A DNA stretch of 64,000 bases, from positions 20,463-84,462 of the forward strand of contig JAJQDV010000032.1 in NCBI GenBank assembly GCA_021202015.1. Reading direction: 5' to 3'. Each line of letters starts with the position of its first letter. The stretch's first letter is position 1. Shown here in pieces: positions 1,056 to 20,990 of the stretch. The notes beneath the pieces were generated by a model. It ran no database searches. It saw nothing but the letters and a program-made list of their open reading frames with translations, and was not told the origin of the DNA. The DNA comes from Clostridiales bacterium. GTDB lineage: Bacteria > Bacillota > Clostridia > Lachnospirales > Lachnospiraceae. The position numbers and the translations under genes were made by a program.

Positions 1056-1931
1056 ATGGCCGAAAAAATCGGAAAACATATAGCAATTTACGGAAAGGGC
1101 GGGATCGGAAAGTCCACGACGACGTCTAATATCAGCGCGGCGCTGGCGGAGGCCGGATACCGGGTCATACAGATCGGATGCGATCCCAAGAGTGATTCGA
1201 CGAACACGCTGCGCGGAAACAATTATTTGCCTACCGTGCTGGACAGTTTGCGCGAAGGAAACAAAATACATCTGGATGATGTGTCAGTGAAAGGATACAG
1301 AGATGTGCTGTGTATCGAATCGGGCGGCCCGGTTCCAGGCGTCGGATGTGCGGGGCGCGGGATCAATGCGGCGGTCAGTCTGCTGCAGGAGCTGAATCTT
1401 TTTGAAGAGTTTAAACCGGATTTTGTCCTGTACGATGTATTGGGCGACGTGGTATGCGGAGGCTTTGCGGTACCGATCCGGGATGGGATCACAGACCGCG
1501 CCTATGTGGTGAGTTCCTCGGATTTCATGGCGGTGTACGCGGCAAACAATCTGTTTAAGGCGATTAATAAATATGCGCCGACAGGCGGTGCGAAACTGGG
1601 CGGAATCATCGCAAACAGTATTACGGCAGGTTATTCGAGGACGATCATCGATGATTTTTCAAAAAAAACCGGGACAGCGGTGGCCGGTTATGTGAACCGC
1701 TCATTGGTGGTTCAGCAGAGTGAACTGTACGGAAAGACAGTGATCGAGGCAAATCCTGAATCCGAACAGGCAGATATTTACCGCAAACTCGCAGCGTATA
1801 TCGCGGAGAACGAGGATCTGGTCGTTCCGAATCCGCTCGGAGTCAGTGAGCTGCGCGACTGGGCCAGAGACTGGGGCGACAAAATATATAATCTGGATGC
1901 CGGTGTGGTTTCCGGAGCGGAAGCAATATGA
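1056..1931 (+). CDS. NifH-like (Group IV nitrogenase-like) Fe protein / ATP-dependent reductase
   Basis: P-loop [34 protein letters not shown] and [13 protein letters not shown]; both [4Fe-4S] Cys ligands are retained. Confidence 0.95.
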
Positions 1932-2025
1932 TGCGGACTGCGGCAAGGCTTTTACAATCTGCGATTCGTGCGTCAGGCGGTGCAAGATGCATAAGTTATT
2001 TCATAAAAGAAAGGTGAACATATGA
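1897..2025 (+). CDS. Candidate 42-aa Cys-rich small protein [42 protein letters not shown] (absent from ORF track)
   Basis: Translated by hand. ATG at 1897, CX6CX2CX3C motif, and its TGA (2023-2025) overlaps the ATG (2022) of the NifD-like gene (ATGA coupling). The RBS is weak. Confidence 0.55.
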
Positions 2026-3428
2026 GTTTGACAGAAAAGAAAGCTCTGACAAGAGAAAAGAGGCTGAGCACCCTCAGCCATTATAACGGTTCTCTGGAGC
2101 AGCTTCGGGGGGATATAAAGGGATCGCAGATTAAACAGAGGATCCGAACGTTTTCCCAGGTTTCTGACGATGAAATCCTGTACGCGATCCGGGTTCTGAG
2201 CCGGATCGGACAATCCGCGATTGTCGTTCACGGGGCGGTGGGCTGCGCCGCTTCCGGGATTTATTTTAACAGTGAACATCCGCTGAACTGGTATTCTACG
2301 AATCTGAACGAGCGCGATACGATACTGGGCGGGGATGAGAAGCTTCGCAGAGCGATCCTCCGCGCTTATGAGGAACAGAATCCGGAGGTGATTTTTGTTA
2401 TCGGAACTCCGGTGGTTGCCATCAATAATGACGATATTAATTCCTGCATTCTGGAACTGGAAGCGGAGCTGGATGTGAAAATCCTGTCCATCTACACAGA
2501 CGGATTCAAGTCCAAAGCGCCGACGACCGGATACGATATCGTGCTTCACGCATTGCTGAACGGTGTGGTGAACAGGGAGAATATCGTGAAAGAAGATATT
2601 ATCAACGTGGTGACTGTGTCAGAGAACCGGGAGGACATTGCGTCGGTTGTAAAAATACTGAGGGATCTGGATATTCCCTACCGGCTTTTACCCCGGTATT
2701 CCACCATAGAAGAAATCCGGAATGCGGGAAACGCAAGGGCGTCCATCTGCCTGGATGCGGATGAGGGCGGTTCTTTTGCGGAGGGTCTCGCGGAGCTGAC
2801 CGGGGTGCCGTACATAAAAACGGACCCGCCGGTGGGTCTTCGGGGAACGAGGCAGTTTATCCGGAAGCTGGCGCAGGCATTGTCCATCGAAGACCGGGCG
2901 TCACAGTATATTGAAGAAAAAGAGGCTGTCGTACAGAAAAAAGTACAGCGGAGAATCTTTGCGGGCAGGAGCGTGTTTCTGGATACGCGGACGTCCCTGG
3001 CGGGAAATCTGGTTGATTTTACAGAGAGTCTCGGCGGACAGGTGGCGGGTCTTGCTGTCACTTATGTCGACCTGAACAATCGCAGCGTGATTGAAAAGCT
3101 GGACAGTCTGGCTAATGCTACGCCTGTGGTGATCGCGAACGGACAGCCTTTTGAAAAGGCAAACGCGTTGTCAAAGGATCATGTGCATTTTTATATCAGT
3201 ACAGAGGGTGATGTGGCTTTTGCGGCAAAGCAGGGAAGTATCCCCGTTTCCCTTTCCGACACAGCGATTCTGGGATATGAGGGGATCGAACAGTTTGCAG
3301 ACCGGATTATCCTCTCGGAAGCTGCCGTTGGGCTCGGGAAATATCTGCAGCAGGATAAGAATCCGTTTTACCGGACTTCCTGGCTGAAAAAAAGCGGCAA
3401 CTGGTATGTGAAGCAGGAGGTGAGGTAA
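2022..3428 (+). CDS. Nitrogenase component-1 family protein, NifD/NifE-like subunit (degenerate Cys pattern)
   Basis: IVVHGAVGC, STNLNERDTILGGDEKL, NNDDI, DGFKS and GYEG motifs of the oxidoreductase/nitrogenase component 1 fold; only 3 Cys in total. Confidence 0.9.
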   Translation: MSLTEKKALTREKRLSTLSHYNGSLEQLRGDIKGSQIKQRIRTFSQVSDDEILYAIRVLSRIGQSAIVVHGAVGCAASGIYFNSEHPLNWYSTNLNERDTILGGDEKLRRAILRAYEEQNPEVIFVIGTPVVAINNDDINSCILELEAELDVKILSIYTDGFKSKAPTTGYDIVLHALLNGVVNRENIVKEDIINVVTVSENREDIASVVKILRDLDIPYRLLPRYSTIEEIRNAGNARASICLDADEGGSFAEGLAELTGVPYIKTDPPVGLRGTRQFIRKLAQALSIEDRASQYIEEKEAVVQKKVQRRIFAGRSVFLDTRTSLAGNLVDFTESLGGQVAGLAVTYVDLNNRSVIEKLDSLANATPVVIANGQPFEKANALSKDHVHFYISTEGDVAFAAKQGSIPVSLSDTAILGYEGIEQFADRIILSEAAVGLGKYLQQDKNPFYRTSWLKKSGNWYVKQEVR

Positions 3429-4765
3429 TGCAGACAGTGATTGAGAATCCCAGAAACGGCTGCGGGATGCATGGCGTGCTCCAGACCGTACAGGAGATCC
3501 GGGGCGTCGTACCCATTGTACACTCGAACGCAGGCTGCGCAGTCTCCAATTATCTGGCAAACCGGGCTTCCGGTTCGGGAAACGGCTATGTCAGCGGCTA
3601 TGACATTCCGGGAACGAATGTACAGGAACGGCATGTGATCTTCGGCGGAGCCTCCCGGCTTCGGGAGCAGATCAAGAACACTCTGAAAGTGGCGGATGGC
3701 AGGCTCTACATTGTACTGAACAGCTGTGAATCCGCCATGGTCGGGGATGATGTGGACGCCATGACCCGGGAAGCGCAGGAACAGCATGAGAGCGTCATCG
3801 ATTCCCTGACGGCGGGTTTTCACGGAGACAGCCATTTCGGATATGAGAGTGTACTGGTGGACATTATCCGACAGCTTCCGACTGTAAGACCTGTTCCGGA
3901 GGAAAACATACCGAACCTTGTAAATGTTTTCGGAATCGTGCCGCAGAAGGATGTCTGTTTTAAGGGAAACCTGGAGGAAATCAGACGGATCCTGGAGGGA
4001 ATCGGCGTAAAGGCCAATATCTTTTTCGGCTTCGAGGACGGGACAGAGGAATTTGCGAAAGCCCCTGCGGCCAGCCTGAATCTGGTCTTTTCAAAATGGG
4101 GAATCCGGGCGGCAAAGGAACTTGAAAAGCTGTACAAAACGCAGTATCTCGTCTTCCCGTACATACCGACCGGAATTCGGGAAGTGCGGGCGTTTGCGGA
4201 GGAGATCCTTGATAAGCTGGCTCTGGATCCGGAACCGGCGGATCGTTTTCTGGAAGAGGAGGAGCGGCAGTTTCGCTATTATCTCAGCGGAATTGCGGAA
4301 AGCTTTTACAGAGAAAATGCGGGAAGACGGATTGCAATCGTGGGCGATGAGAGCGATGTGCGCCGATATTCCTCGTATCTGAGCGAATATCTGGGTGCTG
4401 TCGTAACGGACGCCGTCATCACGGATGATTTTCCGGATGGCGAGACGACACAGAATGAGCGGGCGGAAGCGTTAAAGGACGTCGCCGGGCAGGTTTGTTT
4501 TTCGCAGGACAGCGCGGAAATCGCGAAAATCATAAAAAACAGCGAGGCACAGCTGATTCTGGCCAGCTCGCTGGAGGATGAGGCGGCGGGCAGGAAGGGC
4601 ATCCCGAATCTGGCCGTGTCCTACCCGGTATACGGAAAAGCGATTCTTACAAAAAGTCATGCGGGGATTCACGGAGCACTGACTCTCACTGAGGATTATA
4701 TGACGAAAATCAAAGAGAGCAGTCAGGCGAGGGAAAGGGAACTGGAAGCGTTTCTTATCTCATAG
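3428..4765 (+). CDS. Nitrogenase component-1 family protein, NifK/NifN-like subunit
   Basis: ENPRNGC, HSNAGC, NSCESAMVGDD (three NifK-type Cys) and TNVQERHVIFGGASRL; start overlaps upstream stop (TAATG). Confidence 0.9.
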   Translation: MQTVIENPRNGCGMHGVLQTVQEIRGVVPIVHSNAGCAVSNYLANRASGSGNGYVSGYDIPGTNVQERHVIFGGASRLREQIKNTLKVADGRLYIVLNSCESAMVGDDVDAMTREAQEQHESVIDSLTAGFHGDSHFGYESVLVDIIRQLPTVRPVPEENIPNLVNVFGIVPQKDVCFKGNLEEIRRILEGIGVKANIFFGFEDGTEEFAKAPAASLNLVFSKWGIRAAKELEKLYKTQYLVFPYIPTGIREVRAFAEEILDKLALDPEPADRFLEEEERQFRYYLSGIAESFYRENAGRRIAIVGDESDVRRYSSYLSEYLGAVVTDAVITDDFPDGETTQNERAEALKDVAGQVCFSQDSAEIAKIIKNSEAQLILASSLEDEAAGRKGIPNLAVSYPVYGKAILTKSHAGIHGALTLTEDYMTKIKESSQARERELEAFLIS

Positions 4766-4792
4766 GACGAACTTTCCCATGAGATAAAAAAC
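4746..4792 (-). repeat. Truncated inverted copy (A) of the multi-hairpin element, overlapping the NifK-like stop codon
   Basis: AGCGTTTCTTATCTCATAGGACGAACTTTCCCATGAGATAAAAAA is the reverse complement of the copy B first hairpin with 2 mismatches. Confidence 0.8.
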
Positions 4793-4864
4793 ATAAATCG
4801 CTGCATTCCGGAGCGGGGCAGACGATTCACGCGGAAAAACCTGAGAAATAAGGAAAGAGAGGAA

Positions 4865-5332
4865 ATGAACATGGCCTGGAACAGGGAAGAAATAATAAAC
4901 TACATAAAGGACAGCAGAAGTCTGGTGCTGGCGACCGTGGATGAAAACGGATTCGCGCAGCTGCGGTCAATCGGAGGGTATGGTGCGGATGGTCTGCAGG
5001 TGTATTTCGGCACGGCAAAGACGAGCGGGAAGGTGAAACAGATTGAGCAAAACCCTCATGTCGCCCTGCTTTTTCAGCACGAGGGACAGCAGGTTCCGAA
5101 AAATGTCACGCTGTACGGAACGGCGGCTGTTCTGGGAGAGGAAGAGTTTGAATCCGGGGCAGCGGTGATTCGGGAGAGAAGGCCTCAGATTGCTTTTCAG
5201 AAAGAGGAAAGCAATCTATACAGGGTCGATGTTGAAAAAGTAAAAATACTTGATTTCGGAAGTGAGACGAAGATCAAAGAAGTCCGCGCGGAGGAACTGC
5301 GCCGGACAACGGATTCAGGAGGTTCAAAATGA
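4865..5332 (+). CDS. Pyridoxamine 5'-phosphate oxidase-like FMN-binding split-barrel protein
   Basis: LVLATVDENG..LRSI, YFGTAKTSGKVKQIEQNPHVAL pattern; stop overlaps next start (ATGA). Confidence 0.8.
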   Translation: MNMAWNREEIINYIKDSRSLVLATVDENGFAQLRSIGGYGADGLQVYFGTAKTSGKVKQIEQNPHVALLFQHEGQQVPKNVTLYGTAAVLGEEEFESGAAVIRERRPQIAFQKEESNLYRVDVEKVKILDFGSETKIKEVRAEELRRTTDSGGSK

Positions 5333-6396
5333 TAACGATGAAATGGAAAAGTATGAGCGCATTACTGCTTGCGGGAGTTGTTCTGCTTGCGGGCTGCGGC
5401 AGTTCAGACAGCGGTACAACCGCGGAAAGCGGCGGGGAGGAGGGTACGGTCAGTGTGACGGATGAGACAGCGGGCTCTACGAATGAGGAATTCACGGTAC
5501 GCGTAGGCGTAAATTCAGGAGATCAGAATTCAATTCTGAAAATTGTCGATGAGCATACCGGACTGTTCTCAGATAAAGGAATTCATCTGGAAACAACTGA
5601 ATTTGCTGCGGGAATCAATACGATCGACGCCATAGAGCTGGATCAGGTTGATATCGGACTTTTTGCCGATTATGCGGGAGTAAACAGATTCGGAAACACA
5701 TCCGGCAGCTCAGAGCTTCGTGCATTTACGCAAATGACAAAATCAGATGCATGGGATCTGTATGTCAATCCAGATGCGATTCAGAAACCGGAGGATCTGT
5801 ATGACGCCAGTCTGATTTCGTCTGCGGGTGTTGTATTCGAATATTATTATGCAAGGCTTTTTGAAGTGTATGGGCTGGATATATCAGAGGTAACACTTCA
5901 AAATGTTACAAGCACACAGGAAGCACTGGCGCTGGCGGCTGCCGGAACAGGCGATGCCTATTGGTGCAGTTCACAGACGGCTTCCCTTTTTGAAAAATAC
6001 GGATGGGAACCGTTTGTATCCATAAGTGATATAGATGCAGCCATGTACACATTTATGGTGGCCGGAGAGTCATATCTGACGGAACATAGCGACGAGGTGA
6101 TTCGTTTCCTTGAAGTAAGCGAAGAAGGATTTGAATATATTGCGGAGAATCTGGAGCAGGTTGCTCAGTGGGTAGAGGATGATCTGGGACTTGATCAGGA
6201 GCTGTTTATCAGTGATTGGGAAAGCACGGAACATGTATATGAATTTACCCAGGAAGCCTATGATGATCTGGTCAGTGTCAAGGACTGGTGCTATCAGAAC
6301 GGGAAATTTGATACGGATTTTGATATTTCTGATTTTATCAATACAGATGTATTGAAGCAGATGGATCCGGACAGAGTCACGTATACAGCAGAATAA
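5329..6396 (+). CDS. ABC transporter substrate-binding lipoprotein, SsuA/TauA/NMT1 (sulfonate/nitrate) type
   Basis: Signal peptide with lipobox LLAGC; GLFSDKGIHLETTEFAAGINTIDAIELDQVDIG resembles the SsuA-family N-terminal segment. Confidence 0.8.
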   Translation: MITMKWKSMSALLLAGVVLLAGCGSSDSGTTAESGGEEGTVSVTDETAGSTNEEFTVRVGVNSGDQNSILKIVDEHTGLFSDKGIHLETTEFAAGINTIDAIELDQVDIGLFADYAGVNRFGNTSGSSELRAFTQMTKSDAWDLYVNPDAIQKPEDLYDASLISSAGVVFEYYYARLFEVYGLDISEVTLQNVTSTQEALALAAAGTGDAYWCSSQTASLFEKYGWEPFVSISDIDAAMYTFMVAGESYLTEHSDEVIRFLEVSEEGFEYIAENLEQVAQWVEDDLGLDQELFISDWESTEHVYEFTQEAYDDLVSVKDWCYQNGKFDTDFDISDFINTDVLKQMDPDRVTYTAE

Positions 6397-6443
6397 CCGG
6401 CGCCTTTTGCTTTTCGGAATGATGCGGTGAAGGAGATCAAAGG

Positions 6444-7505
6444 ATGTACATAGAATTAAAGCATATTAATAAAACGTTCGGAAATTTCAAAGCATCTGAC
6501 GATGTGAGTTTTGGAATCGAAAAAGGGAAACTGGTCGCGCTTCTGGGACCGAGCGGAAGCGGAAAGACTACCATCCTGCGCATGATTGCCGGTCTGGAGC
6601 ATCAGGACGACGGAGATATCTGTATTGATGGAAAATGTGTGAACCGCGTGCCGGTGCGGGAACGGGAAATCGGATTTGTGTTTCAGAATTACGCTCTTTT
6701 TCCTTATCTGACGGTATACGACAATATTGCATACGGTTTGAAGGCGAGAAAGAAGGATAAAGCGGCTGTCAGGGAGCGGGTCACAGAACTGTTGGAGCTG
6801 GTGGGTCTTCCGGGACTGGAGAAGCGATATCCGTCCCAGCTCTCCGGCGGTCAGAAGCAGCGGGTGGCCTTTGCCAGGGCACTGGCGCCGCAGCCGCATG
6901 TTCTGCTGCTGGACGAACCGTTTGCCGCTATTGACGCGAAGGTTCGCAAAGAACTTCGGAGCTGGCTGAAGGAGATGATCGGAAAAATCGGCATCACCAG
7001 TATCTTTGTGACCCACGACCAGGACGAGGCCGTGGAGGTGGCTGACGAGATCATTGTGACGAATCTGGGTCGGGTGGAGCAGGTGGGAAAACCGACGGAT
7101 ATCTATAAACATCCGCAGACGCTGTTTGTGGCGCAGTTTATCGGGGAATCCACGTTGCTGACCGATTACGATCGGATCAAAGGGTTTGATATCTATAACG
7201 GAAAGCGAACGGCGATCATCCGGCCGGAATTTGTGAAGGTGATAAAGTATGGGTCAGTAAAGCAGTATGAGAGCCTGTATGCGGAAGGCGTGGTGGAGCA
7301 GATCTCCTTTGGTGGAAATTGCATGGAGCTGCTTGTGAATGTAAACGGTATCCGCATAAAAGCCAGGCAGTCTCTGGAAGAAGAACCTTTCGAAAAAGGA
7401 GAAAAGGTAGAGGTGATTGTATACCGCCTGTATGTGGTGGATGAAAATGAAGCGCATCTTTTGCAGAATAAAGGGATGCAGGAGCAGGGAATGTTTTATA
7501 TTTAG
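6444..7505 (+). CDS. cysA: ABC ATP-binding protein, CysA (sulfate/thiosulfate)-type with C-terminal TOBE-like extension
   Basis: Walker A GPSGSGKT, FVFQNYALF, signature LSGGQKQR, Walker B LLLDEPF, VTHDQDEA, FVAQFIGE; 353 aa. Confidence 0.75.
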   Translation: MYIELKHINKTFGNFKASDDVSFGIEKGKLVALLGPSGSGKTTILRMIAGLEHQDDGDICIDGKCVNRVPVREREIGFVFQNYALFPYLTVYDNIAYGLKARKKDKAAVRERVTELLELVGLPGLEKRYPSQLSGGQKQRVAFARALAPQPHVLLLDEPFAAIDAKVRKELRSWLKEMIGKIGITSIFVTHDQDEAVEVADEIIVTNLGRVEQVGKPTDIYKHPQTLFVAQFIGESTLLTDYDRIKGFDIYNGKRTAIIRPEFVKVIKYGSVKQYESLYAEGVVEQISFGGNCMELLVNVNGIRIKARQSLEEEPFEKGEKVEVIVYRLYVVDENEAHLLQNKGMQEQGMFYI

Positions 7506-7524
7506 AAAAGAAAGGAAGAAAAAA

Positions 7525-8748
7525 ATGTCAGAAGCAATCAGCAGAAAAGAATTTTACAGAGAGGTGGAACTGGGAGAACGGATCGGAAATGATGGCATCG
7601 ATTTCGGGGAAGGCGTGCTGGAAAGTCTGGACTTTGAAAATAAGGTTCAGGAGCAGATCCGGGCATGCTTTGATATGAACCATGAGTCTTACGTAAAGAA
7701 TAGGCTTCCTTCCGGGGTCAGACTGCCCAGCAACTATCGTCTGGGGGTTCCTTATCGAAACGGAGCTCCGTTTCATATTGAACTGGAAGGCGGAAGATAC
7801 CTGCTGTACGATAAAAAGAATTTCCTGTATGAGGTAACTTTTATAGAGAAACCTGCGTTTTACAATAAGAAAACGTCAGATGGCGTGAACATGAGCACCA
7901 TCGCCAATGAGATCGGAAAAACGAAAATCTCAGTGGCGTACAGCAATGAATGCGCGCTGCGTGACAAAGGGCTTGACTGCAAATTCTGCAACATTAACGC
8001 CACAAAAGACCGATTTGCACAGCTGCAGGGAATTGAGTGGAAAAACCCGAAACAGATCGCGGAGACCGTGAAAGAGGCCTATGCGGAGGGGTATCAGAGG
8101 ATTACGATTACCGGCGGATTTATACCGGAGCGCAGGGAAGTGGAATATTACATTGATGTGGCGGAGGAAATCCGTGATCTGACCGGACTGGATGATTTTG
8201 GGGGAACCGCGTGTGTGGGAGCCCCGGCGGATCTGAGCGTGATCGAGAAATATAAAGAGGCCGGATACAGCGCCATCTCTTCCAATATGGAGATCTGGGA
8301 TGAAAATATTTTTAAGACGATCTGCCCGGGGAAAGATCAGATCTGCGGAGGACGGCAGAACTGGATAGAGGCGCTGAAAGAGGAAGTGCGGGTATTCGGG
8401 AAAGGTAATGTGAGATCCTTCTTTGTGGCCGGGATTGAGCCGAAATCCACATTGCTCGAGGGAATTGAGTACCTGGCGTCTCTGGGCGTGGTCGCAATCC
8501 CGCTGCACTGGCTTCCGAATCCGGGATCGGAGCTGGAGGGACATCGGGCGCCCAAAGCGGAATGGTACACGGATCTTTATCAGAAGACATACAACATTTT
8601 AAAGAAAAACGGGCTTACGCATCTGGATCTTTACCGCTCCGCAAATGTAGAAAATTCAATTTTTGATTATCTTTATGATATGGACGGGGATCTTCTCCCG
8701 TTCGAGCGCCACAATGCGGATGCCGTACAATTTCTGCCCGCGGTGTAA
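7525..8748 (+). CDS. Radical SAM enzyme with non-canonical CX8CX2C motif
   Basis: ECALRDKGLDCKFC; ITITGG, SSNMEIWD..FKTICPGK. Start placed at ATG 7525 after an AGGAAG RBS. Confidence 0.85.
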   Translation: MSEAISRKEFYREVELGERIGNDGIDFGEGVLESLDFENKVQEQIRACFDMNHESYVKNRLPSGVRLPSNYRLGVPYRNGAPFHIELEGGRYLLYDKKNFLYEVTFIEKPAFYNKKTSDGVNMSTIANEIGKTKISVAYSNECALRDKGLDCKFCNINATKDRFAQLQGIEWKNPKQIAETVKEAYAEGYQRITITGGFIPERREVEYYIDVAEEIRDLTGLDDFGGTACVGAPADLSVIEKYKEAGYSAISSNMEIWDENIFKTICPGKDQICGGRQNWIEALKEEVRVFGKGNVRSFFVAGIEPKSTLLEGIEYLASLGVVAIPLHWLPNPGSELEGHRAPKAEWYTDLYQKTYNILKKNGLTHLDLYRSANVENSIFDYLYDMDGDLLPFERHNADAVQFLPAV

Positions 8749-8759
8749 GGGAAGCGTAA

Positions 8760-9533
8760 ATGGATATGAAGAAAGACAGGAAGATATTTGACAGAATTTT
8801 AAAATGCGGCGTCGTCACATGGATTCTTCTGGTGTTGATCTGGCAGTTCGGATCACTGTTTTACAGTGATGATTTTCTCCCCGGACCGCTTGTAACACTG
8901 GCAGGAGCAGGGAAACTGGTGGCGAACGGCACTCTGTGGGAGGATATCCTGATCAGTCTGCAGCGTGTATTGAAGGGGTGGATTCTGGGAATCGCGGTTG
9001 CGATTCCCCTGGGATTGTGCATCGGATACTTCAAAAAGGTCGGTTATCTTCTGGAGCCTTTTCTGAATTTTTTCCGCTTTATCCCTGCCATCGGTCTTAT
9101 TACGCTGTTTCTGATGTGGTTCGGTGTGGGAGAAACATCCAAGGTCGCCCTGATTTTTTATGCGGTGATTTTTCCGGTGATGATTAATACGATCGCGGGA
9201 GTTAAGACGGTAGACCCGGCTTTGGTGGAAGCGGCCGAGTCCCTGGGTTCTGCGGATGTCCGGACATTTTTCACTGTGATCGTTCCTTCTGCCGTACCGA
9301 ATATTTTTACGGGAGTACGTCTGGGGCTGAGCAGTGCCATCATATGTATTGTGGCGGCTGAGATGCTGGCCGCGTCGGAAGGACTGGGATATCTGATCTA
9401 TACCTCCAGACTATATTACAGAACAGACTGGATCTTTGTCGGCATTTTCACGCTTGGGATTCTCGGGTTCCTGGCTGACAGACTGCTGCAGTTTCTGGGA
9501 AAAAGGTTTCTGAAAAGATTTGGCGTAAAGTGA
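8760..9533 (+). CDS. ABC permease, SsuC/TauC type
   Basis: ISLQRVLKGW..GI, LEPFLNFFRFIPAIG, EAAESLG (EAA motif), IVAAEMLAASEGLGYLI. Confidence 0.9.
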   Translation: MDMKKDRKIFDRILKCGVVTWILLVLIWQFGSLFYSDDFLPGPLVTLAGAGKLVANGTLWEDILISLQRVLKGWILGIAVAIPLGLCIGYFKKVGYLLEPFLNFFRFIPAIGLITLFLMWFGVGETSKVALIFYAVIFPVMINTIAGVKTVDPALVEAAESLGSADVRTFFTVIVPSAVPNIFTGVRLGLSSAIICIVAAEMLAASEGLGYLIYTSRLYYRTDWIFVGIFTLGILGFLADRLLQFLGKRFLKRFGVK

Positions 9534-9583
9534 GGGAAAATGAGACATAAATAAGCCATCCATCATAATAATCTATAAACCCG

Positions 9584-9616
9584 AAAGGCCTGCAGAAAAA
9601 TATTTGCAGGCCTTTT
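9584..9616 (+). terminator. Intrinsic terminator closing the nitrogenase-like operon
   Basis: AAAGGCCTGCA-loop-TGCAGGCCTTTT inverted repeat with T-run. Confidence 0.7.
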
Positions 9617-9703: not shown

Positions 9704-10099
9704 ATGATTTCAACCAAAGGACGTTATGCACTCCGTCTCATGATAGATATTGCCGAACATTCGGACGAAGGCTGTATTCCATTGAAGGACATAGCAGAGC
9801 GCCAGGAGATATCCAAAAAATACCTTGAAATTATTGCGAAGGAGCTGGTAAAAGGTAAGATGATATCCGGCCATGGCGGGCGCGGCGGCGGCTATGTTTT
9901 ATGTCGCCGTCCGGAAGAATACACAGTTGGGGAGATCCTTGAATGGACAGAAGGGTCTCTGGCAACGGTAGCCTGTCTTGCGAAGGATGCGCTCCCCTGC
10001 AGCAGATCCTCTGTTTGCAAAACGCTTCCCCTATGGAAAGAGTTTGACAAAATGACAGTTGATTATTTTTATGGAAAGACGTTGGCTGATCTGCTGTAA
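9704..10099 (+). CDS. Rrf2-family transcriptional regulator (IscR/CymR-like, 3 Cys)
   Basis: MISTKGRYALR, IAERQEISKKYLE, GGRGGGY, C-x7-C-x5-C near the C-terminus. Confidence 0.92.
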   Translation: MISTKGRYALRLMIDIAEHSDEGCIPLKDIAERQEISKKYLEIIAKELVKGKMISGHGGRGGGYVLCRRPEEYTVGEILEWTEGSLATVACLAKDALPCSRSSVCKTLPLWKEFDKMTVDYFYGKTLADLL

Positions 10100-10239: not shown

Positions 10240-10274
10240 TAAATTGATTTTGCAGAAAAAATGTGAGGTGTGGA

Positions 10275-10805
10275 ATGAAAATGCGCAACAGAAAAATACG
10301 GTTTTTCGCAGGGGTTTTCGCAGCAGCCGCGGTTGTTATGGCCGGTTGTTCTTCCGGTACAGAGCAGGAGGAAACACAGGAACATACATCTGAAGCAGAT
10401 TCGGGCGAAACACAGGAAAATGCATCCGGCACAGCTGAGGACGGAATCGAAATCAATGTAGAAGATATAAGCACCGAGGCCAGCTATTATGATACTGAAA
10501 TTGATGGAACAGATGTCGAAATCTTCGCGGTTCTCGCTTCTGATGGCACAGTTCGTCTTGCAATGAATACCTGCCAGGTTTGCAACGGATCCCCCTATGC
10601 TTATTTTGAACAGGAAGGCGATGATTTTGTCTGCCAGAACTGCGGGAATCACTTTTCATCCGATGAAATCGGGCTTACAGCCGGAGGCTGCAATCCCGTC
10701 CCGATTACGGAGGATGATTACACCGAAGAAAACGGGATCATTACGGTTTCCGACTCTTTTCTGGAAGAAAACGCATATCGTTTTTCCAACTGGAAACAGT
10801 TTTAA
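10275..10805 (+). CDS. DUF2318 (FtrD-like, Cys-rich) lipoprotein
   Basis: Lipobox MAGC; NTCQVC...VCQNCG...GGCNPVP motif. Confidence 0.8.
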   Translation: MKMRNRKIRFFAGVFAAAAVVMAGCSSGTEQEETQEHTSEADSGETQENASGTAEDGIEINVEDISTEASYYDTEIDGTDVEIFAVLASDGTVRLAMNTCQVCNGSPYAYFEQEGDDFVCQNCGNHFSSDEIGLTAGGCNPVPITEDDYTEENGIITVSDSFLEENAYRFSNWKQF

Positions 10806-10818
10806 AGGGGGGACTTAA

Positions 10819-12102
10819 GTGAGTAAGGTTGTTTTTCACGTTACCGGCATGACCTGCTCCGGTTGTGAGCGCCGACTGGAAGGAGCTGTATCAGCACTTC
10901 AAGGCGTACATTCCGTAACTGCGGATTACAGCAGAGGGGAATTAACAGCTGAATTCAATCCTCCCTGCACGGAAAGCGTCATCATTGAAACAATTCAAAA
11001 GACCGGTTACGGAGTTGCGAAAAACGCAAAAAAAGCCCGGGATACGGTGGCTGTTCTGGTTATTATTCTCGGAATCTATGTTATCGCCCGGCAGATGGGA
11101 TGGCTGGAGATATTTCAGAACATCCCGACGATCAGTGAAGAACGAATGAGTTATCTTGCTCTGTTCGCGATTGGCCTGCTGACAAGCGTCCATTGTATTG
11201 CCATGTGCGGAGGATTAAATCTGGCTCAGAGTATTTCTTCCGGAGATATAAAACCCGTGCGTCGCAGTATCTTATACAATCTCGGGCGGCTGACCAGTTA
11301 CACTTTGATCGGCGGTATCCTGGGTTTTATCGGTGAAAAAGCTGCCATTACCTTACAGGTGAGGGGTTTGATCGGTCTGATCGCCGGCGGGGTTATGCTG
11401 CTCATGGGCGTCAATATGCTGGGAGGCCTTTCCCTGTCTGTTCGCCTGTTTCCGAAGCTGTCCGGGAAACTTTCTGCCGGAATACAGAGCGTGGGGAAAC
11501 ATAGTTCCTTTGCGACAGGTCTGGCAAATGGTTTGATGCCCTGCGGGCCGTTGCAGTCCATGCAGATTTACGCAATCGCCAGCGGCAGTATGCTGGCCGG
11601 AGCGCTGTCCATGTTTTCCTTTTGTTCAGGCACGATTCCCCTTGTCTTTGCATTTGGCCTGGCGGCGGGGATGCTGAAAATGCACTGGCGGCAGCGAATG
11701 CTTCAGGTCGGGTCTGTCCTGCTGCTTATCATGGGAATCTTTATGATACAGAACAATCTTGTCCTGACAGGCTTTAATGTCTCATCGACAGTTGCTGAAA
11801 CAGATGGGACTGTCGTTTCAACCATTGATGGAGACGTCCAGTATGTTACTACAGAACTTCATGCCAACGGCTACGACGATATTCAGGTCGTAGCAGGGAT
11901 TCCTGTCATATGGACGATAGATGTTGATGAGAATAATCTGAACGGCTGCAATAATGAGATTGTGTTGTCGGCGTTTGACCAGCAGGTGAAGCTTATCGCA
12001 GGCGAAGTTGTCATAGAGTTTACACCTGAGGAAGAAGGAACATATACATATTCCTGTTGGATGGGAATGTTAAAAAATACGATTACAGTCGTTGAGAATT
12101 AA
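10819..12102 (+). CDS. HMA domain + DsbD_2/TauE-like membrane domain + cupredoxin-like domain protein
   Basis: GMTCSGC HMA motif; GLLTSVHCIAMCGG and GLMPCGPLQ membrane motifs; C-terminal GCNNEI..YSCWMGM. Confidence 0.85.
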   Translation: MSKVVFHVTGMTCSGCERRLEGAVSALQGVHSVTADYSRGELTAEFNPPCTESVIIETIQKTGYGVAKNAKKARDTVAVLVIILGIYVIARQMGWLEIFQNIPTISEERMSYLALFAIGLLTSVHCIAMCGGLNLAQSISSGDIKPVRRSILYNLGRLTSYTLIGGILGFIGEKAAITLQVRGLIGLIAGGVMLLMGVNMLGGLSLSVRLFPKLSGKLSAGIQSVGKHSSFATGLANGLMPCGPLQSMQIYAIASGSMLAGALSMFSFCSGTIPLVFAFGLAAGMLKMHWRQRMLQVGSVLLLIMGIFMIQNNLVLTGFNVSSTVAETDGTVVSTIDGDVQYVTTELHANGYDDIQVVAGIPVIWTIDVDENNLNGCNNEIVLSAFDQQVKLIAGEVVIEFTPEEEGTYTYSCWMGMLKNTITVVEN

Positions 12103-12192
12103 GTTGCAGGAAAGGGATTTGAATTCAGATATATCATGCTTTATTCAGAAATGAACAGTGCCTGTAGGGAAGCCGGGGGAGGGGGTTAGCTG

Positions 12193-12221
12193 TTGACAAA
12201 TGGCAAGTATTAGTATAAAAT
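12193..12221 (+). promoter_or_regulatory. Sigma-A promoter for the gshA-like operon
   Basis: TTGACA-17 bp-TAAAAT. Confidence 0.65.
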
Positions 12222-12300
12222 ACCCTCAATAACATACTAAACATATATGAATGATTAGATATAAAAACGACCGGTAAACCGGATACAGAAGGAGAATACC

Positions 12301-13629
12301 ATGGGTTTTCTGCTGGACGAACGAGAATTAAAAAAATATATTTCCAAAGGGGAGTTCGGACTGGAGAAGGAGAGCCTGCGAGTGGATGCGCAGGGTTACC
12401 TCTCTCATACGCCGCATCCTTTCCCGGGTGACAGCAGGATTGACAGGGATTTCTGTGAGAATCAGGTAGAACTGATTACGGGCGTGAGTGACAGTATTGA
12501 AAAGGTGTGGGCGGAGCTGGCCGGTCTCTATCGCGAGACGGCGGACTGCCTGCTGAAACTGGAAACGGGCAGGGAGTATCTCTGGCCTTTTTCCAACCCT
12601 CCCTATGTCCGCGGCGAGGAGGATATTCCGATTGCGCAATTTTTCGGAAGCCAGACGGGAAAGGGCGTTTACCGGGAATATCTGGCCGGGAAATACGGCA
12701 AGAAAAAAATGCTTTATTCGGGGATACACTATAATTTTTCCTTTTCAGAGGAATTGCTGCGGGCGGATTTTGTCTGCCACAGAGAGAAGAAACCCGTTGA
12801 TCATGGAAAGGATGAAGAGAAGGCATACCGTGACTATAAGGATCGGATATATCTGGAACTTGGTAAGAAAGCCGTCAAATACAGCTGGCTGATCGTTTAT
12901 CTGACAGCGGCGAGTCCTGTCCTGGACGGTTCGTATTATCGGGCCGGCGATCTGGATGAAACGGTGGTCAGCAGTTACGCTTCGCCGCGGTGCAGCGAGA
13001 TCGGCTACTGGAATTCTTTTGTGCCGATTCTGGATTTTACGAGTCTGAACGGTTACGCGGACAGCATCGACGGTTATGTGAAGAACCGGATGATCACCGC
13101 ATCCACGGAGCTTTATTATCCGGTGCGCTTAAAAGCGCGCGGCGCGAATACGACGGATAACCTCCGGAAAAACGGCGTCAGCCATGTGGAACTGCGGATG
13201 CTGGACTTAAATCCGCTCTGCCCGGTGGGAATCCGGCGGCAGGATCTTAAGTTTATCCATCTGCTGCTGGTCTGGCTGATGCTTCAGGAGGATGAGGCAT
13301 TCGGGACGACGGAGCAGACGATCGCGATCCGCAATATGAAGGAGGCGGCGCGTTTTGCACCGGAAGAGATTCAGATCGAGTCCGGCTGGTATCAGATCCG
13401 GCCGGTGCGGGAGGCTGCGGCGGAAATTCTGAATGATATGACAGAGAAGCTGCCGGGATATTTTCCCGGTCAGGAGGCTGCGGTACTGGAGTGCCTGAAT
13501 TCTCAGCTGGAAAAAGCGGAGGATCCGTCGAAACGATATGCGGCGCAGATCCGGGAGCGGTTTCAGAAAGGGTATGTGAAGAAGGGAATGCGGCTGGCGG
13601 TAGAATATGCGAAGGGATTTCAAAATTAG
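12301..13629 (+). CDS. gshA: Glutamate--cysteine ligase (GshA domain, no fused GshB domain)
   Basis: FGLEKESLRV, DFCENQVELIT, WPFSNPP, SGIHYNFSF, ELYYPVRLK, GVSHVELRMLDLNP. Confidence 0.8.
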   Translation: MGFLLDERELKKYISKGEFGLEKESLRVDAQGYLSHTPHPFPGDSRIDRDFCENQVELITGVSDSIEKVWAELAGLYRETADCLLKLETGREYLWPFSNPPYVRGEEDIPIAQFFGSQTGKGVYREYLAGKYGKKKMLYSGIHYNFSFSEELLRADFVCHREKKPVDHGKDEEKAYRDYKDRIYLELGKKAVKYSWLIVYLTAASPVLDGSYYRAGDLDETVVSSYASPRCSEIGYWNSFVPILDFTSLNGYADSIDGYVKNRMITASTELYYPVRLKARGANTTDNLRKNGVSHVELRMLDLNPLCPVGIRRQDLKFIHLLLVWLMLQEDEAFGTTEQTIAIRNMKEAARFAPEEIQIESGWYQIRPVREAAAEILNDMTEKLPGYFPGQEAAVLECLNSQLEKAEDPSKRYAAQIRERFQKGYVKKGMRLAVEYAKGFQN

Positions 13630-13670
13630 GAACAGACCGTGTAATATAGCACTACGAGGTTTATGTTGTC

Positions 13671-14441
13671 ATGTGTGAATTATTTGGCGTATGTGCACGC
13701 CGGCCGGTAGAGTGCCGGGATTATTTAAAAGAGTTTTACCGACACAGCCCTCAGCATCCGAACGGATGGGGGCTGGCAATCCTGGACGGGAACAGTGCGG
13801 CCATTGAGAAAGAACCGTTAGAGGCGGAGAAAAGCAATTATCTTCACGAGCGGCTGACGGTTCCGGTGGAGGGCAGACTGCTTCTGGCGCATATCCGTTA
13901 CGCGACCATCGGGAATGTGGAGTATAAAAACTGCCATCCGTTTTCGGGTGTGGACTGTACCGGACGGCGGTGGACCCTGATCCACAATGGGACGATTTTT
14001 GAGTATGAGCCGCTGCATCGTTATGTGGAGCGCCAGCGTGGTGATACGGACAGCGAAAGGATTTTTCTTTTCCTCATGGATGAGGTGAACAGAAGGACCA
14101 GGTCAGAGGGTAAGCTGGACGCGGAAAAACGTTTTCGGTTGCTGGATGAACTGATCGGCGGCATGGCGACGGGCAATAAGCTGAATCTTCTGATCAGCGA
14201 CGGGGAATGCATGTATGTACATACGAATTATGAGAATTCTCTGCACTTTCGCCAACGGAAAGGGCAGGTGTTTTTTTCCACGGAGCCGCTCGGACGGGAT
14301 GCCTGGGAATGTGTGCCGTTGACTACGCTTCTGGCCTGGCGGAACGGGGAACTTCTGTACACAGGGACAGATCACGGACAGGTATTTGAGGATAATGAGG
14401 AGAATATGAAGTTCCTGTATCAGATTTTCTCGAATTTGTAA
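13671..14441 (+). CDS. Class II glutamine amidotransferase-like (Ntn hydrolase; YafJ/EgtC-like)
   Basis: N-terminal MCELFG (Cys2 nucleophile), HPNGWG, AHIRYATIG, NCHPF, HNGTI, GDTDSE. Confidence 0.88.
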   Translation: MCELFGVCARRPVECRDYLKEFYRHSPQHPNGWGLAILDGNSAAIEKEPLEAEKSNYLHERLTVPVEGRLLLAHIRYATIGNVEYKNCHPFSGVDCTGRRWTLIHNGTIFEYEPLHRYVERQRGDTDSERIFLFLMDEVNRRTRSEGKLDAEKRFRLLDELIGGMATGNKLNLLISDGECMYVHTNYENSLHFRQRKGQVFFSTEPLGRDAWECVPLTTLLAWRNGELLYTGTDHGQVFEDNEENMKFLYQIFSNL

Positions 14442-14489
14442 GGAACTGATAAGATTCATTCTTTAACAGTTCCTGAGGGGAGGTTACCC

Positions 14490-15881
14490 ATGATAGATGA
14501 AAAAACAGTGCGCGAGCACCTGTATCGAAAATATATTGAACCAACAAAAAAGGAACGGGAGCTTTATATCGGCATTGAACTGGAACTGCCCATTGTGAAT
14601 CTGGACAGAAAGGCGGTGGATTTTGCCAATGTCCATCAGGCTGCGCGGGAATTTGTCGAGCATTTTCAGTTTCGCCCGACCGGATGGGATGACGAGGGAA
14701 ATATGTGCGCTGCCGAATGTCCGAAAACAGGGGATATTCTTTCTTTTGACTGTTCTTATAATAACCTGGAGCTTTCTATGGGAAGGGAAAAAGAACTTCA
14801 TACGCTGAATAAACGGTTTTCCGGATATTACCGTTATCTGAATAAGTTGCTGGGGCGTTACCATTACACCCTGACCGGGATGGGGATCAATCCATATCGG
14901 ATTTATAATCATAATGTTCCCATTGAAAACGGGCGATACCGGATGCTTTTTCATCATCTGGGTCTCCGGGATAAATATCAGCAGGAAGAGCCGATGTATT
15001 TTCATGAGTACCCGGCGTTCGGAACATTCTGCAGCGCGTCCCAGGTACAGCTGGATGTGAGTTATGACGATCTGCTGCTGACAGTGAATGTGTTTTCGCG
15101 TCTGGAACCGATCACCGCGCTGCTTTTCGGAAACTCCGTCCTGTTGGGGGAGCATGAGGATCTGCTCTGCAGCCGGGATATGCTCTGGGAAAACAGTTCG
15201 CAGGGAATCAATCCGCACAATATCGGCATGTTTGACTGCCATTTTGATACGGTGGAGGATTTGCTGTCGTACATAGAGTCCACGAGTATCTATTGTGTTG
15301 AGCGCGAGGAAAAATATATTAATTTCCGGCCTATGTGTGTCCGGGATTATTTTCAGAAAGAATCGGTTCAGGGAGAATACTTTGCGGACGGCGGTTATCA
15401 TGAGATCGATGTGATTCCTCAGATTGAGGATCTGGCCTGGCTTCGAACCTTTAAGTTCGAGGATCTGACATTTCGCGGAACGGTCGAGTTTCGGAGCGCG
15501 TGCTGCCAGCCGGTTTCCGACAGTATGGCGGTCGCGGCTTTTTACGTGGGACTGAAGGAAAAGCTGTCGGAGCTGTCCGGGATTCTGGCAAATGACCGCG
15601 TGATCTATCACCATGGCTATAACCAGATGGAGCTGCGGAAACTCTTTGTGAAGAGAGAATTGCCGGGGTTTGTGGATGCCGACAGCCTCTATCGTCTGAC
15701 CGGCCGGATTGTGAAGCTGGCCGAAGAAGGACTGCGGGAGAGAGGGTTTGGCGAGGAGTGTTATCTTAGGCCTTTGTATGGCCGCGTAAAATCGAGAGAA
15801 AATCCGGCCATGCGGATGCTGAGGGAGCGTGACGCGGGGCGCAGCATAGAAGAGATTATTCTGGAATATCGGGAATTGTGA
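14490..15881 (+). CDS. GCS2-family glutamate--cysteine/amine ligase (EgtA-like)
   Basis: IGIELELP, NNLELS, GMGINP, SASQVQLD, RGTVEFRS..Q. Confidence 0.8.
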   Translation: MIDEKTVREHLYRKYIEPTKKERELYIGIELELPIVNLDRKAVDFANVHQAAREFVEHFQFRPTGWDDEGNMCAAECPKTGDILSFDCSYNNLELSMGREKELHTLNKRFSGYYRYLNKLLGRYHYTLTGMGINPYRIYNHNVPIENGRYRMLFHHLGLRDKYQQEEPMYFHEYPAFGTFCSASQVQLDVSYDDLLLTVNVFSRLEPITALLFGNSVLLGEHEDLLCSRDMLWENSSQGINPHNIGMFDCHFDTVEDLLSYIESTSIYCVEREEKYINFRPMCVRDYFQKESVQGEYFADGGYHEIDVIPQIEDLAWLRTFKFEDLTFRGTVEFRSACCQPVSDSMAVAAFYVGLKEKLSELSGILANDRVIYHHGYNQMELRKLFVKRELPGFVDADSLYRLTGRIVKLAEEGLRERGFGEECYLRPLYGRVKSRENPAMRMLRERDAGRSIEEIILEYREL

Positions 15882-15894
15882 GCGCAGGCGGAGT

Positions 15895-16767
15895 TTAGGA
15901 TTCGATCACCTCCCGAATCATATCAATGAAAACTTTAATCAACGGTGTAAGCTGATATTTTTTATAAAACATACCATAGGAGAGATGCTCCGCGCCCTGT
16001 AACGGCACATATTTCACACCGGCGTTATAGTAGTCAATTTTTGGCGCTATGGTAAAACCGTAACCCGCACGTATCATAAATAATGCTGCCTGCAGATTTT
16101 CACACATATACGTTTTTTCAATCAGAATATGTGATGCAGCCTGTTCCTGCATAACAACCGCTTTTGACGGAACTTCTTTACAGAGAATGATGCTTTCTGA
16201 ATAAAGCTCGGATTCGAGGATGGATTCACGGCTTGAATATGGATGCGATTCGGGAAAAACACAACAGAGCGGAACCTTATCCAGCTCTTTATAAACCATG
16301 CCGCCGCGAAGCGGAATATCATCTTTGAATCCGAAAAGTATATCAATGTCCCCCTGTGAAAACAATGACAAAATAGAGCGGTGAGGGATGATTTTCAAAA
16401 AAGGATGAATCTCGGGAAGCCGCTTTTTTGATTCTTCTAAAATAATATACAGAAAATCCAGATCAACCTCGTTCCCGCATCCGATCGTTATGACCTGTAT
16501 ATTTGTCTCTGTGTGCTGATGGATTTTGGCGGTAGCGGTGCGGAGAGTCATCATAATTTTTTTTGTATCTTCTAAAAAGCTGAGTCCGGCCGGCGTGAGC
16601 GTTACCGCTCTGGTTGTTCGCAGTAAAAGCTGAACACCAAGTTCTTCCTCAAGCGCACGAATCTGGCGCGATACATTGGACTGCGTCATGTTCAGGACCT
16701 CGGCAGCTCTTGCAAAGTTGAGATTTTCAGCAACCTGTATGAAGGTTTCTAATTGTTGAATGTTCAA
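15895..16767 (-). CDS. LysR-family transcriptional regulator
   Basis: MNIQQLETFIQVAENLNFARAAEVLNMTQSNVSRQIRALEEELGVQLLLRT HTH; TTG start; divergent from the MATE gene. Confidence 0.95.
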   Translation of the reverse strand: MNIQQLETFIQVAENLNFARAAEVLNMTQSNVSRQIRALEEELGVQLLLRTTRAVTLTPAGLSFLEDTKKIMMTLRTATAKIHQHTETNIQVITIGCGNEVDLDFLYIILEESKKRLPEIHPFLKIIPHRSILSLFSQGDIDILFGFKDDIPLRGGMVYKELDKVPLCCVFPESHPYSSRESILESELYSESIILCKEVPSKAVVMQEQAASHILIEKTYMCENLQAALFMIRAGYGFTIAPKIDYYNAGVKYVPLQGAEHLSYGMFYKKYQLTPLIKVFIDMIREVIES

Positions 16768-16878
16768 TTTTTTTACCTCGATTATTGCAATTTTCTCATT
16801 AACGATACCATATATTCATGTATGAATCAAGAAATCCTGTGCTATAATTCCTGCGAATTGCAACAGGAGGTATTACAT

Positions 16879-18237: not shown

Positions 18238-18254
18238 GGAAAGGACGATGAAAA

Positions 18255-18860
18255 ATGGAAAAAAATCTGGTTGTTTCGATTGGCCGCCAATATGGAAGCG
18301 GCGGCAGAGAAATCGGAAAAAAACTTGCCGAAAGACTGGGATATGACTACTATGACACACTTCTTTTGGAGAATGCTTCAAAAGGCAGCGGATTATCGGA
18401 GGAAGTGATTGCGAAGTATGATGAAAAGCTTGCCAACAAATGGTTCCACGGATCCCTGGGAATGGTGAGTGCTTCGGAACGTCATATGCTGCCTGTCCCT
18501 CTCAGAACAGCCATTGTTCAGTTTGAGGAAATCCGGAAAATCGGCAAAAAGGGCCGGGCGGTGATCGTTGGCCGCTGCGCGGATCAGATATTGAAGGAAC
18601 AGGGCAATGTTCTCTCCGTCTTTATCCATGCGGAAACGGAACATCGCATCCGGCGTGTCTCGGAGAGAAATCACCTGTCTGAAGCAGAAGCAAAAAAGCG
18701 GATTCGAAACATAGATAAAGAGAGAGCTGCCTATTACAATTACTACACGGATAAAGAATGGGGAAAAACGGAAACGTATCATCTGTGCGTGGACAGCGGT
18801 CTGTTCGGGATAGACGGTGTGGTAAATATTTTGTATGAAGCGGCCGGCGCCTGTGAATAA
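18255..18860 (+). CDS. Cytidylate kinase-like family protein
   Basis: SIGRQYGSGGREIG, AVIVGRCAD, DKERAAYYNYYT..WG. Confidence 0.88.
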   Translation: MEKNLVVSIGRQYGSGGREIGKKLAERLGYDYYDTLLLENASKGSGLSEEVIAKYDEKLANKWFHGSLGMVSASERHMLPVPLRTAIVQFEEIRKIGKKGRAVIVGRCADQILKEQGNVLSVFIHAETEHRIRRVSERNHLSEAEAKKRIRNIDKERAAYYNYYTDKEWGKTETYHLCVDSGLFGIDGVVNILYEAAGACE

Positions 18861-18910
18861 GCAGTGAAAACAGCGACAGAGTAAGAGTCCTGTGGTTTTG
18901 GCGGCAGAAA

Positions 18911-19002
18911 AATAACCTGTTATAGATACAAGCTATAATGGGTTATTTTTTTTATGTATTAGACACTCGGATTTTGGCGTGTTAATATATTGCATATAAA
19001 AT
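18911..19002 (+). promoter_or_regulatory. Palindromic operator (TATAG-N7-CTATA) and promoter upstream of the metY-like gene
   Basis: AAAATAACC..TATAGATACAAGCTATA..GGTTATTTT; TTGGCG-17 bp-TAAAAT at 18974-19002. Confidence 0.55.
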
Positions 19003-19066
19003 CGGTATATAAACTTGGTTTTTAATATGAAAGATGAAGAAACTGATATTCCTGTAAGAGGGGATT

Positions 19067-20314: not shown

Positions 20315-20324
20315 AAGGAATGGA

Positions 20325-20579: not shown

Positions 20580-20582
20580 ATT

Positions 20583-20900: not shown

Positions 20901-20990
20901 CCGTTCCTGCATGTTGACAGAAGATAATTCATATTGTGATGTAAAATAATTTTTGATAAAATACAGAAATCAGAAAGGATTGATATTATC

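Follow-up and report, generated by a model that had tools for sequence, protein, structure and literature searches.

A probable Group IV-F isethionate reductase locus with an asymmetric set of cluster cysteines in an uncultured Clostridiales bacterium

We analyzed a 64,000-nt stretch of DNA from a Clostridiales bacterium (Lachnospiraceae), here called the window, which corresponds to positions 20,463–84,462 of the forward strand of contig JAJQDV010000032.1 (assembly GCA_021202015.1). The list of open reading frames (ORFs) and scans with Pfam and NCBIfam models revealed that the first 10 kb of the window form one string of genes that all point in the same direction. Positions 1056–9533 of this string probably represent a Group IV-F nitrogenase-like system, composed of isrH, isrD, isrK, the radical S-adenosylmethionine (SAM) gene isrB, and the genes of a sulfonate-type ABC importer.

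The NifH-like, ATP-dependent reductase is encoded by isrH (1056–1931, +), whose product matched the Pfam family Fer4_NifH (1.8e-92) and carries a Walker A motif, GKGGIGKS, from residue 13 as well as the cluster cysteines Cys98 and Cys134. IsrH scored under the trusted cut-offs of the NCBIfam models for nifH, CfbC, BchL, and BchX, and reached 569 bits when compared with IsrH of Pseudobutyrivibrio ruminis. Downstream lie isrD (2022–3428, +) for the D-like subunit of 468 amino acids and isrK (3428–4765, +) for the K-like subunit of 445 amino acids. The stop codon of isrD overlaps with the start codon of isrK (TAATG); both ORFs are intact and translationally coupled. The gene for the radical-SAM enzyme, isrB, is located at 7525–8748 (+), and its product was matched by the NCBIfam model NF045502 (variant_rSAM, 4e-135).

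A sequence-only reading of this stretch, which did not recognize the family, had proposed that the D-like subunit keeps a single P-cluster cysteine, that the K-like subunit keeps three, and that the ligands of the iron–molybdenum cofactor (FeMo-co) are absent. We placed the residues of D by two independent alignments, which agreed with each other. The first used phmmer and hmmsearch, including a profile of 59 D relatives, against the solved methylthio-alkane reductase subunit MarD (9fmg_A). The second was a profile–profile alignment of the 59 D relatives with 29 Mar/Nfa-like proteins, all of which have the four ligand cysteines. A whole-library HMMER search for the D family had yielded 97 representatives below 1e-30, whose alignment split cleanly into a group with the pattern of the window and a Mar/Nfa-like group with all cysteines; the 59 relatives are the full-length members of the former group and are 28–75% identical to the D protein of the window.

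The D-like protein contains three cysteines in total, namely Cys75 in HGAVGC (nt 2244–2246), Cys142 in DINSC, and Cys243 in ASIC. Both alignments assigned Cys75 to the Cys88-type position, Asp50, the last residue of SQVSDD, to the Cys62-type position, and Pro130 of GTPVV to the Cys154-type position. Asp245 was found at the position of MarD Cys270 (NifD Cys275), and Ala415 at that of MarD His429. Direct reading showed no histidine between residue 390 and the C-terminus of D, that is, in the final 79 residues. The positions that the sequence-only reading had named in D were thus all located correctly, including the absence of FeMo-co ligands. Because the equivalents of Cys62, Cys154, Cys275, and His442 are missing, the D subunit of the window cannot hold a P-cluster or FeMo-co.

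The pattern is a property of the family. Cys75 is present in all 59 relatives, and Pro130 in 56 of them, with Ser in two and Ala in one. Cys142 and Cys243 are shared by 2/59 and 3/59 relatives only, which rules out that the DINSC and ASIC cysteines serve as shifted cluster ligands. Among the 59 relatives, the only columns rich in histidine are those of His70 and His176, and the C-terminal domain has no column rich in either cysteine or histidine. At the Cys275 position (Asp245), Asn occurs in 33/59 and Asp in 18/59 sequences. Fourteen D columns are invariant across the family, and examples of invariant residues that are not ligands are E12, R42, T43, the NNDD motif at 135–138, E378, and W461/K464/E466. 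An AlphaFold2 model of D, with a mean local confidence (pLDDT) of 84.9, had MarD 9fmg_A as its top solved match, with a template modeling (TM) score of 0.83. In this model, Asp50 stands directly before helix 51–59, Pro130 begins helix 130–134, and Cys75 is part of a short helix (73–76).

The Cys62 position deserves separate mention. The corresponding codons (2169–2174) encode Asp50 and Glu51. The first of the two residues is Asp in 46/59 relatives and Ser in 9/59, and it is invariant among 62 closer homologues; the second is always Glu or Asp. An Arg has been named at the Cys62 position of IsrD (PMC11423573). The invariant Arg42 of our alignment pairs with an Arg that is also conserved in the Mar-like proteins. 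As judged from the alignments, the Cys62 position is occupied by a conserved Asp, differing from the published Arg. By analogy with the BchB aspartate of DPOR, Asp50 may act as a fifth, oxygen ligand. Ligation by the pair of Asp50 and the acidic residue 51 may be considered as a smaller possibility, and a site of four cysteines plus Asp is without precedent in the superfamily. The sequence-only reading had itself named, as an objection to its proposal, that other D cysteines or Asp residues might come to lie at cluster positions; this holds for the conserved Asp50 and not for the DINSC and ASIC cysteines.

The K-like protein contains five cysteines, Cys12 (NGC), Cys37 (AGC), Cys100 (NSC), Cys177, and Cys357. 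The first three align with the three MarK cysteines, i.e., the positions of NifK Cys70, Cys95, and Cys153, as had been proposed. They are invariant in 78 K orthologues drawn from genome loci, in every sequence that covers these sites, while Cys177 and Cys357 are not conserved. The numbering closely resembles that of R. capsulatus IsrK (Cys12, Cys37, and Cys99).

Group IV-F isethionate reductases are defined by just this asymmetric set of ligands. The pattern is real but was published in 2024, and the window holds a gut-clostridial member of a described family. Morimoto et al. (2024; PMC11423573) renamed the Rhodobacter capsulatus genes nflBHDK (rcc02237–02234) isrBHDK, for isethionate reductase. 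Together with the SsuCAB transporter, isrBHDK are required for anaerobic growth of R. capsulatus on isethionate as the sulfur source; isethionate sulfite-lyase substitutes for the DK genes, complementation with islAB indicates release of sulfite, and seven genes confer the isethionate trait on R. sphaeroides (PMC11423573). IsrD and IsrK of R. capsulatus co-purify and show Fe-S-type absorbance. IsrD has the Cys88 equivalent only, carries Pro/Ser at the Cys154 position, and is devoid of Cys275 and His442, IsrK has all three cysteines, and a [4Fe-4S] cluster held by the four IsrDK cysteines was suggested (PMC11423573). A review from 2026 (PMC13474568) describes the same for "Group IV-F ISR", with the cluster predicted only. 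Our search of the literature turned up no subsequent structural or enzymological studies of Isr, and the PDB contains no Isr structure.

The connection between the window and this family was made through P. ruminis DSM 9787 (locus L029 in our genome set). By exact-sequence look-up, the D, K, and radical-SAM proteins of this locus are WP_097076486.1, WP_097076485.1, and WP_097076484.1, which the supplementary table of PMC11423573 lists as IsrD, IsrK, and IsrB. The D protein of the window is 48% identical to WP_097076486.1 over 465 amino acids, the K protein 47% identical to WP_097076485.1 over the full length, and the radical-SAM protein 75% identical to WP_097076484.1, also over the full length. 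The profile of the window family additionally recovered Anaerocolumna sedimenticola, Clostridium polyendosporum, C. chromiireducens, and C. luticellarii, all of which are listed as Isr organisms. We assign the locus to Isr because the ligand pattern, the orthology to the author-listed P. ruminis proteins, and the gene context agree. Like the R. capsulatus system, the window encodes one D cysteine at the Cys88 position, Pro at the Cys154 position, three K cysteines, and no Cys275 or His442 equivalent, along with a NifH-like partner, a radical-SAM partner that is not of the NifB type, and a sulfonate-type ABC importer. The gene order differs, being metK-H-D-K-PNPOx-SBP-ATPase-B-permease in the window (SBP, substrate-binding protein) and B-H-D-K with ssuCAB apart in R. 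capsulatus. Unlike R. capsulatus Isr, the window also has an adjacent metK and a gene for an Rrf2 regulator, and its host is an uncultured, gut/rumen-type Clostridiales bacterium.

Other nitrogenase-like systems were compared with the locus and rejected as its family. The closest solved structure is that of the methylthio-alkane reductase MarBHDK (Group IV-C) from Rhodospirillum rubrum (PDB 9FMG, 9D9U), with 2e-35 for D and 1.6e-58 for K. Both Mar and Isr serve sulfur assimilation by reductive C-S cleavage and consist of H, D, K, and radical-SAM parts. However, Mar keeps six P-cluster cysteines, its Cys270 and His429 hold an [Fe8S9C] cluster, and MarB is NifB-like, whereas the D protein of the window departs at four of the eight ligand positions (Asp50, Pro130, Asp245, and Ala415) and its radical-SAM partner is not NifB-like. 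DPOR (BchNB/ChlNB, Group V) resembles the arrangement proposed here in having a single interface [4Fe-4S] cluster with asymmetric 3+1 ligation, no complex cofactor, and a cavity-bound substrate. Its ligand distribution is reversed, with three cysteines from D-like BchN and one Asp from K-like BchB as opposed to one D and three K cysteines in the window; its substrate is a tetrapyrrole, it has no radical-SAM partner, and the BchN and BchB models scored far below their cut-offs, so that membership in DPOR/COR was discarded. CfbD (Group IV-B) likewise carries a simple [4Fe-4S] cluster on the fold of nitrogenase component 1, but it is built from one type of subunit, with symmetric use of the equivalents of Cys88 and Cys154, whereas the window has two subunit genes and Pro130 at the Cys154 position; the CfbD model reached 44 bits against a cut-off of 268. 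With NifDK, VnfDK, and AnfDK, the window shares the fold, the H-D-K architecture, the K cysteines 70, 95, and 153, and Cys88 of D. Here the ligand set of D fails, and the scores were low as well, with 50 bits against a cut-off of 654 for nifD and nifK also far below. The sequence-only reading had suggested an enzyme mechanistically different from Nif and Mar; the locus indeed lacks the ligand sets of both, but as a bearer of the described Group IV-F signature it does not stand for a new mechanistic class.

That interpretation also omitted the essential radical-SAM partner IsrB. The IsrB protein of the window has the motif CX8CX2C (Cys143/152/155, positions 7951–7989) instead of the canonical CX3CX2C. 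Among 87 radical-SAM homologues from related loci, none departs from Cys143 or Cys155, and a single one has Tyr in place of Cys152; Cys267 occurs in 87/87 and Cys274 in 77/87. Besides NF045502, the protein matched MSMEG_0568 and CofH-type models of NCBIfam, and there was no NifB model among its NCBIfam matches. The nearest relative of IsrB in Swiss-Prot is BciD. IsrB is essential in R. capsulatus (PMC11423573).

Between isrK and isrB, the window encodes a PNPOx-like FMN-binding split-barrel protein (4865–5332, +; Pfam PNPOx_N, 1e-13), a lipoprotein that represents the substrate-binding component of an ABC importer and is distantly SsuA/NMT1-like (5329–6396, +; Pfam NMT1, 6.3e-9; lipobox LLAGCGSS in the translation), and an ABC transporter ATPase with a C-terminal TOBE domain (6444–7505, +; Pfam ABC_tran and TOBE_2). 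The ATPase belongs to the sulfate ABC transporter ATP-binding subfamily TIGR00968, with 358 bits at a cut-off of 343. Downstream of isrB lies the gene for a TauC/SsuC/SaoP-like permease (8760–9533, +; Pfam BPD_transp_1), whose NCBIfam matches to SaoP, TauC, and SsuC were each under the cut-off. The string is flanked by metK for S-adenosylmethionine synthetase (5–1003, +), which is truncated by the start of the window and was named from reading the sequence alone, and by a gene for an Rrf2-family protein resembling IscR and CymR (9704–10099, +; Pfam Rrf2, 3.3e-30). The latter scored above the cut-off of the NCBIfam model rrf2_super and below those for IscR and CymR, and is a candidate regulator of the isr locus.

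A scan of one genome per species uncovered 80 loci with a D relative of 35–99% identity. Synteny was counted for the 53 loci that extend at least 5 kb beyond D on both sides: all 53 contain K, 52 contain H, and 50 contain a radical-SAM protein that belongs to the NCBIfam family of IsrB; the permease, the ATPase, and metK were present in 47, 45, and 42 loci, respectively. In most of the Firmicutes and Spirochaete loci, metK directly adjoins isrH-D-K (42/53). This adjacency would fit a heavy, perhaps stoichiometric, use of SAM by the radical-SAM partner. A homologue of the PNPOx-like protein occurs in 17 of the 80 loci, next to either of the two types of radical-SAM protein described below; it may serve as an electron donor.

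The closest of these loci, L001, is from a metagenome-assembled genome of a Clostridiales bacterium. At the amino acid level, its H and D proteins are 99% identical to those of the window, K and MetK (ORF 5–1003) 96%, and the Rrf2 protein, whose gene adjoins K in L001, 95%. The values for the radical-SAM protein, the ATPase, and the permease are only 47%, 40%, and 36%, respectively. A block of 4.8 kb between K and Rrf2 in the window (4763–9527) is absent from L001, which instead has a different block of 4.7 kb (4291–9035) between metK and H. The cassette that follows K in the window contains the PNPOx-like protein, the substrate-binding protein, the ATPase, a type-1 radical-SAM protein, and the permease. 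That of L001 contains a type-2 radical-SAM protein, a permease, an ATPase, a bona fide SsuA-family substrate-binding protein, and a short-chain dehydrogenase/reductase (SDR) family oxidoreductase. Across the 80 loci, the radical-SAM proteins fell into two score classes: 11 loci had only the window type, 48 had only the other, and 5 had both; in PMC11423573, both types belong to one IsrB clade. As judged from these comparisons, the substrate specificity may be set by the radical-SAM/transporter cassette and not by DK. Because the cassette may have this function, we name the substrate "a sulfonate, possibly isethionate".

A stretch of approximately 80 nt just upstream of the Rrf2 gene (9536–9616) has a second copy in L001 (87–169) that is 90% identical and sits about 2.9 kb upstream of metK; it may represent a shared operator or promoter element. 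Searches with Rfam detected no SAM riboswitch or T-box near metK or isrH, neither in the window (1–64000) nor in loci L002, L003, L029, and L048. The sole Rfam matches were a tRNA at 49635–49707 of the window and a Clostridiales-1 sRNA at 3776–3932 of L003. Farther downstream, the genes at 10263–22003 encode, among others, an FtrD-like protein, a DsbD_2/HMA membrane protein, a glutamate-cysteine ligase, a class-II amidotransferase, a pyridoxal phosphate (PLP) enzyme of Cys/Met metabolism, and a ThiF-family protein. Part of this neighborhood is thus thiol- and sulfur-themed.

The two cubanes of the P-cluster are bridged by the thiolates of D Cys88 and K Cys95, and the cubane on the K side has K Cys70 and Cys153 as its terminal ligands. 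On the basis of this assignment, the cysteines retained in the window are exactly those that surround the K-side half of the P-cluster, the D-side half being lost. At the level of sequence, the four conserved cysteines and the absence of cofactor ligands fit a single interface [4Fe-4S] cluster and not a P-cluster plus an M- or L-cluster. We infer the type of cluster and its ligands, the electron path, the catalytic site, and the substrate of the window copy as follows. The ABC importer would take up isethionate or a closely related aliphatic sulfonate. The IsrH dimer would use ATP to drive low-potential electrons into IsrDK, where each DK pair would carry one [4Fe-4S] cluster at the subunit interface, held by D-Cys75 and K-Cys12, Cys37, and Cys100. 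Electrons would pass from ATP-bound IsrH via this cluster to the substrate, which would occupy the cavity of FeMo-co or the L-cluster in Nif and Mar. There, with the participation of IsrB, the C-S bond would be cleaved reductively, and the sulfite set free would enter the synthesis of cysteine and methionine. The simple interface cluster had already been proposed by the sequence-only reading; the cysteine pattern fits it and equals the published IsrDK prediction, and the conserved Asp at the Cys62 position qualifies it.

Several observations weigh against assigning an isethionate reductase of this design. Four cysteine ligands would leave no iron site open, so that the cleavage of a sulfonate C-S bond by a plain [4Fe-4S] cluster is unexplained. 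The conserved Asp50 and the acidic residue 51 may point to a different ligation of the cluster. The substrate-binding protein is only weakly SsuA-like (NCBIfam SsuA_fam, 1.2e-15, 58 bits at a cut-off of 163.5), and with the nearly identical HDK proteins of L001 accompanied by another cassette, the substrate of the window copy is not established as isethionate. For no member of the Isr family does the literature report a cluster identification or an in vitro reconstitution of the reaction. Moreover, the tie to the characterized R. capsulatus enzyme rests on the orthologue table of its authors and not on a direct alignment: the R. capsulatus Isr proteins were neither among the matches listed in our protein searches nor among the 80 genome loci, and no Rhodobacter names occurred among the cluster members of ten distant representatives. 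A search of plasmids returned two distant matches to nitrogenase component 1 only, with 26–27% identity.

The exchange of cassettes also bears on the question of which protein cleaves the substrate. It is possible, if on balance unlikely, that the radical-SAM enzyme is the substrate-specific catalyst, acting via a 5'-deoxyadenosyl radical, and that HDK only delivers electrons, either by re-reducing the IsrB cluster or by quenching a product radical. The nearly identical HDK proteins (99/99/96%) that are combined with non-orthologous cassettes at different positions in the window and L001 argue for this explanation, as do the two score classes of radical-SAM proteins, both of which occur in 5 of the 80 loci. 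Stoichiometric use of SAM would fit the adjacency of metK in 42/53 loci, the radical-SAM protein is much better conserved toward P. ruminis (75%) than D (48%) and K (47%), and 65 IsrB compared with 38 IsrD orthologues were counted in PMC11423573. However, D and K have many invariant residues that are not ligands, seemingly more than an electron relay needs, the characterized relatives Nif, Mar, DPOR, COR, and CfbCD all perform catalysis on the D-type subunit, and the two cassettes may be alternative versions for one and the same substrate.

Alternatively, IsrB might be a maturase that supplies a non-standard cofactor to the cavity of IsrD, attached without Cys or His ligands or through Asp50, the acidic residue 51, or other carboxylates. 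We consider this improbable. NifB and MarB set the precedent of a radical-SAM enzyme that builds a cofactor, IsrB is essential in R. capsulatus (PMC11423573), Cys267 and Cys274 could hold an auxiliary cluster, and a conserved Asp with an invariant acidic residue is found at the Cys62 position, together with Asn/Asp at the Cys275 position. On the other hand, IsrB resembles NifB in the radical-SAM core only, with BciD as its nearest Swiss-Prot relative and a match to NF045502, and all known complex clusters need at least one Cys anchor. A maturase would also not be expected to travel with transporters or to be swapped between strains that share a 99%-identical D protein. To a decayed, non-functional Mar or Nif relative that has lost its ligands we give practically no credence. 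Only the bare loss of two P-cluster cysteines and both cofactor ligands speaks for decay, and the concern that orthologues might retain all cysteines did not hold, as the missing cysteines are absent from the 59 D relatives, too. The same pattern recurs at full length in the 78 K orthologues and in D relatives with as little as 28% identity, D has 14 invariant columns, 80 genomes share the operon context, and the ORFs are intact and coupled. In addition, genetic work has shown that R. capsulatus needs its Isr system to use isethionate (PMC11423573). A degenerate copy is thus ruled out by the conservation of D and K and by synteny.

Taken as a member of Group IV-F, the locus places an uncultured gut/rumen-type Clostridiales bacterium among the anaerobic users of sulfonate sulfur, and a tool-less reading of raw sequence recovered the ligand signature by which the Isr branch is recognized. 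Beyond the published work (PMC11423573), the Asp at the Cys62 position, the CX8CX2C motif, and the exchangeable cassettes may be of use to those who study Isr. The exchange of cassettes around an HDK core of 96–99% identity constitutes a natural experiment on which component sets the specificity. A far-reaching and rather doubtful idea is that IsrHDK is a shared, substrate-agnostic, ATP-driven reductase, and that interchangeable cassettes of a radical-SAM protein and an ABC importer, in some cases with a flavoprotein or an SDR enzyme, choose in place of DK the organosulfonate to be desulfonated. If this were true, the name "isethionate reductase" would cover only one activity among several, with the radical-SAM protein as the true C-S-cleaving catalyst.

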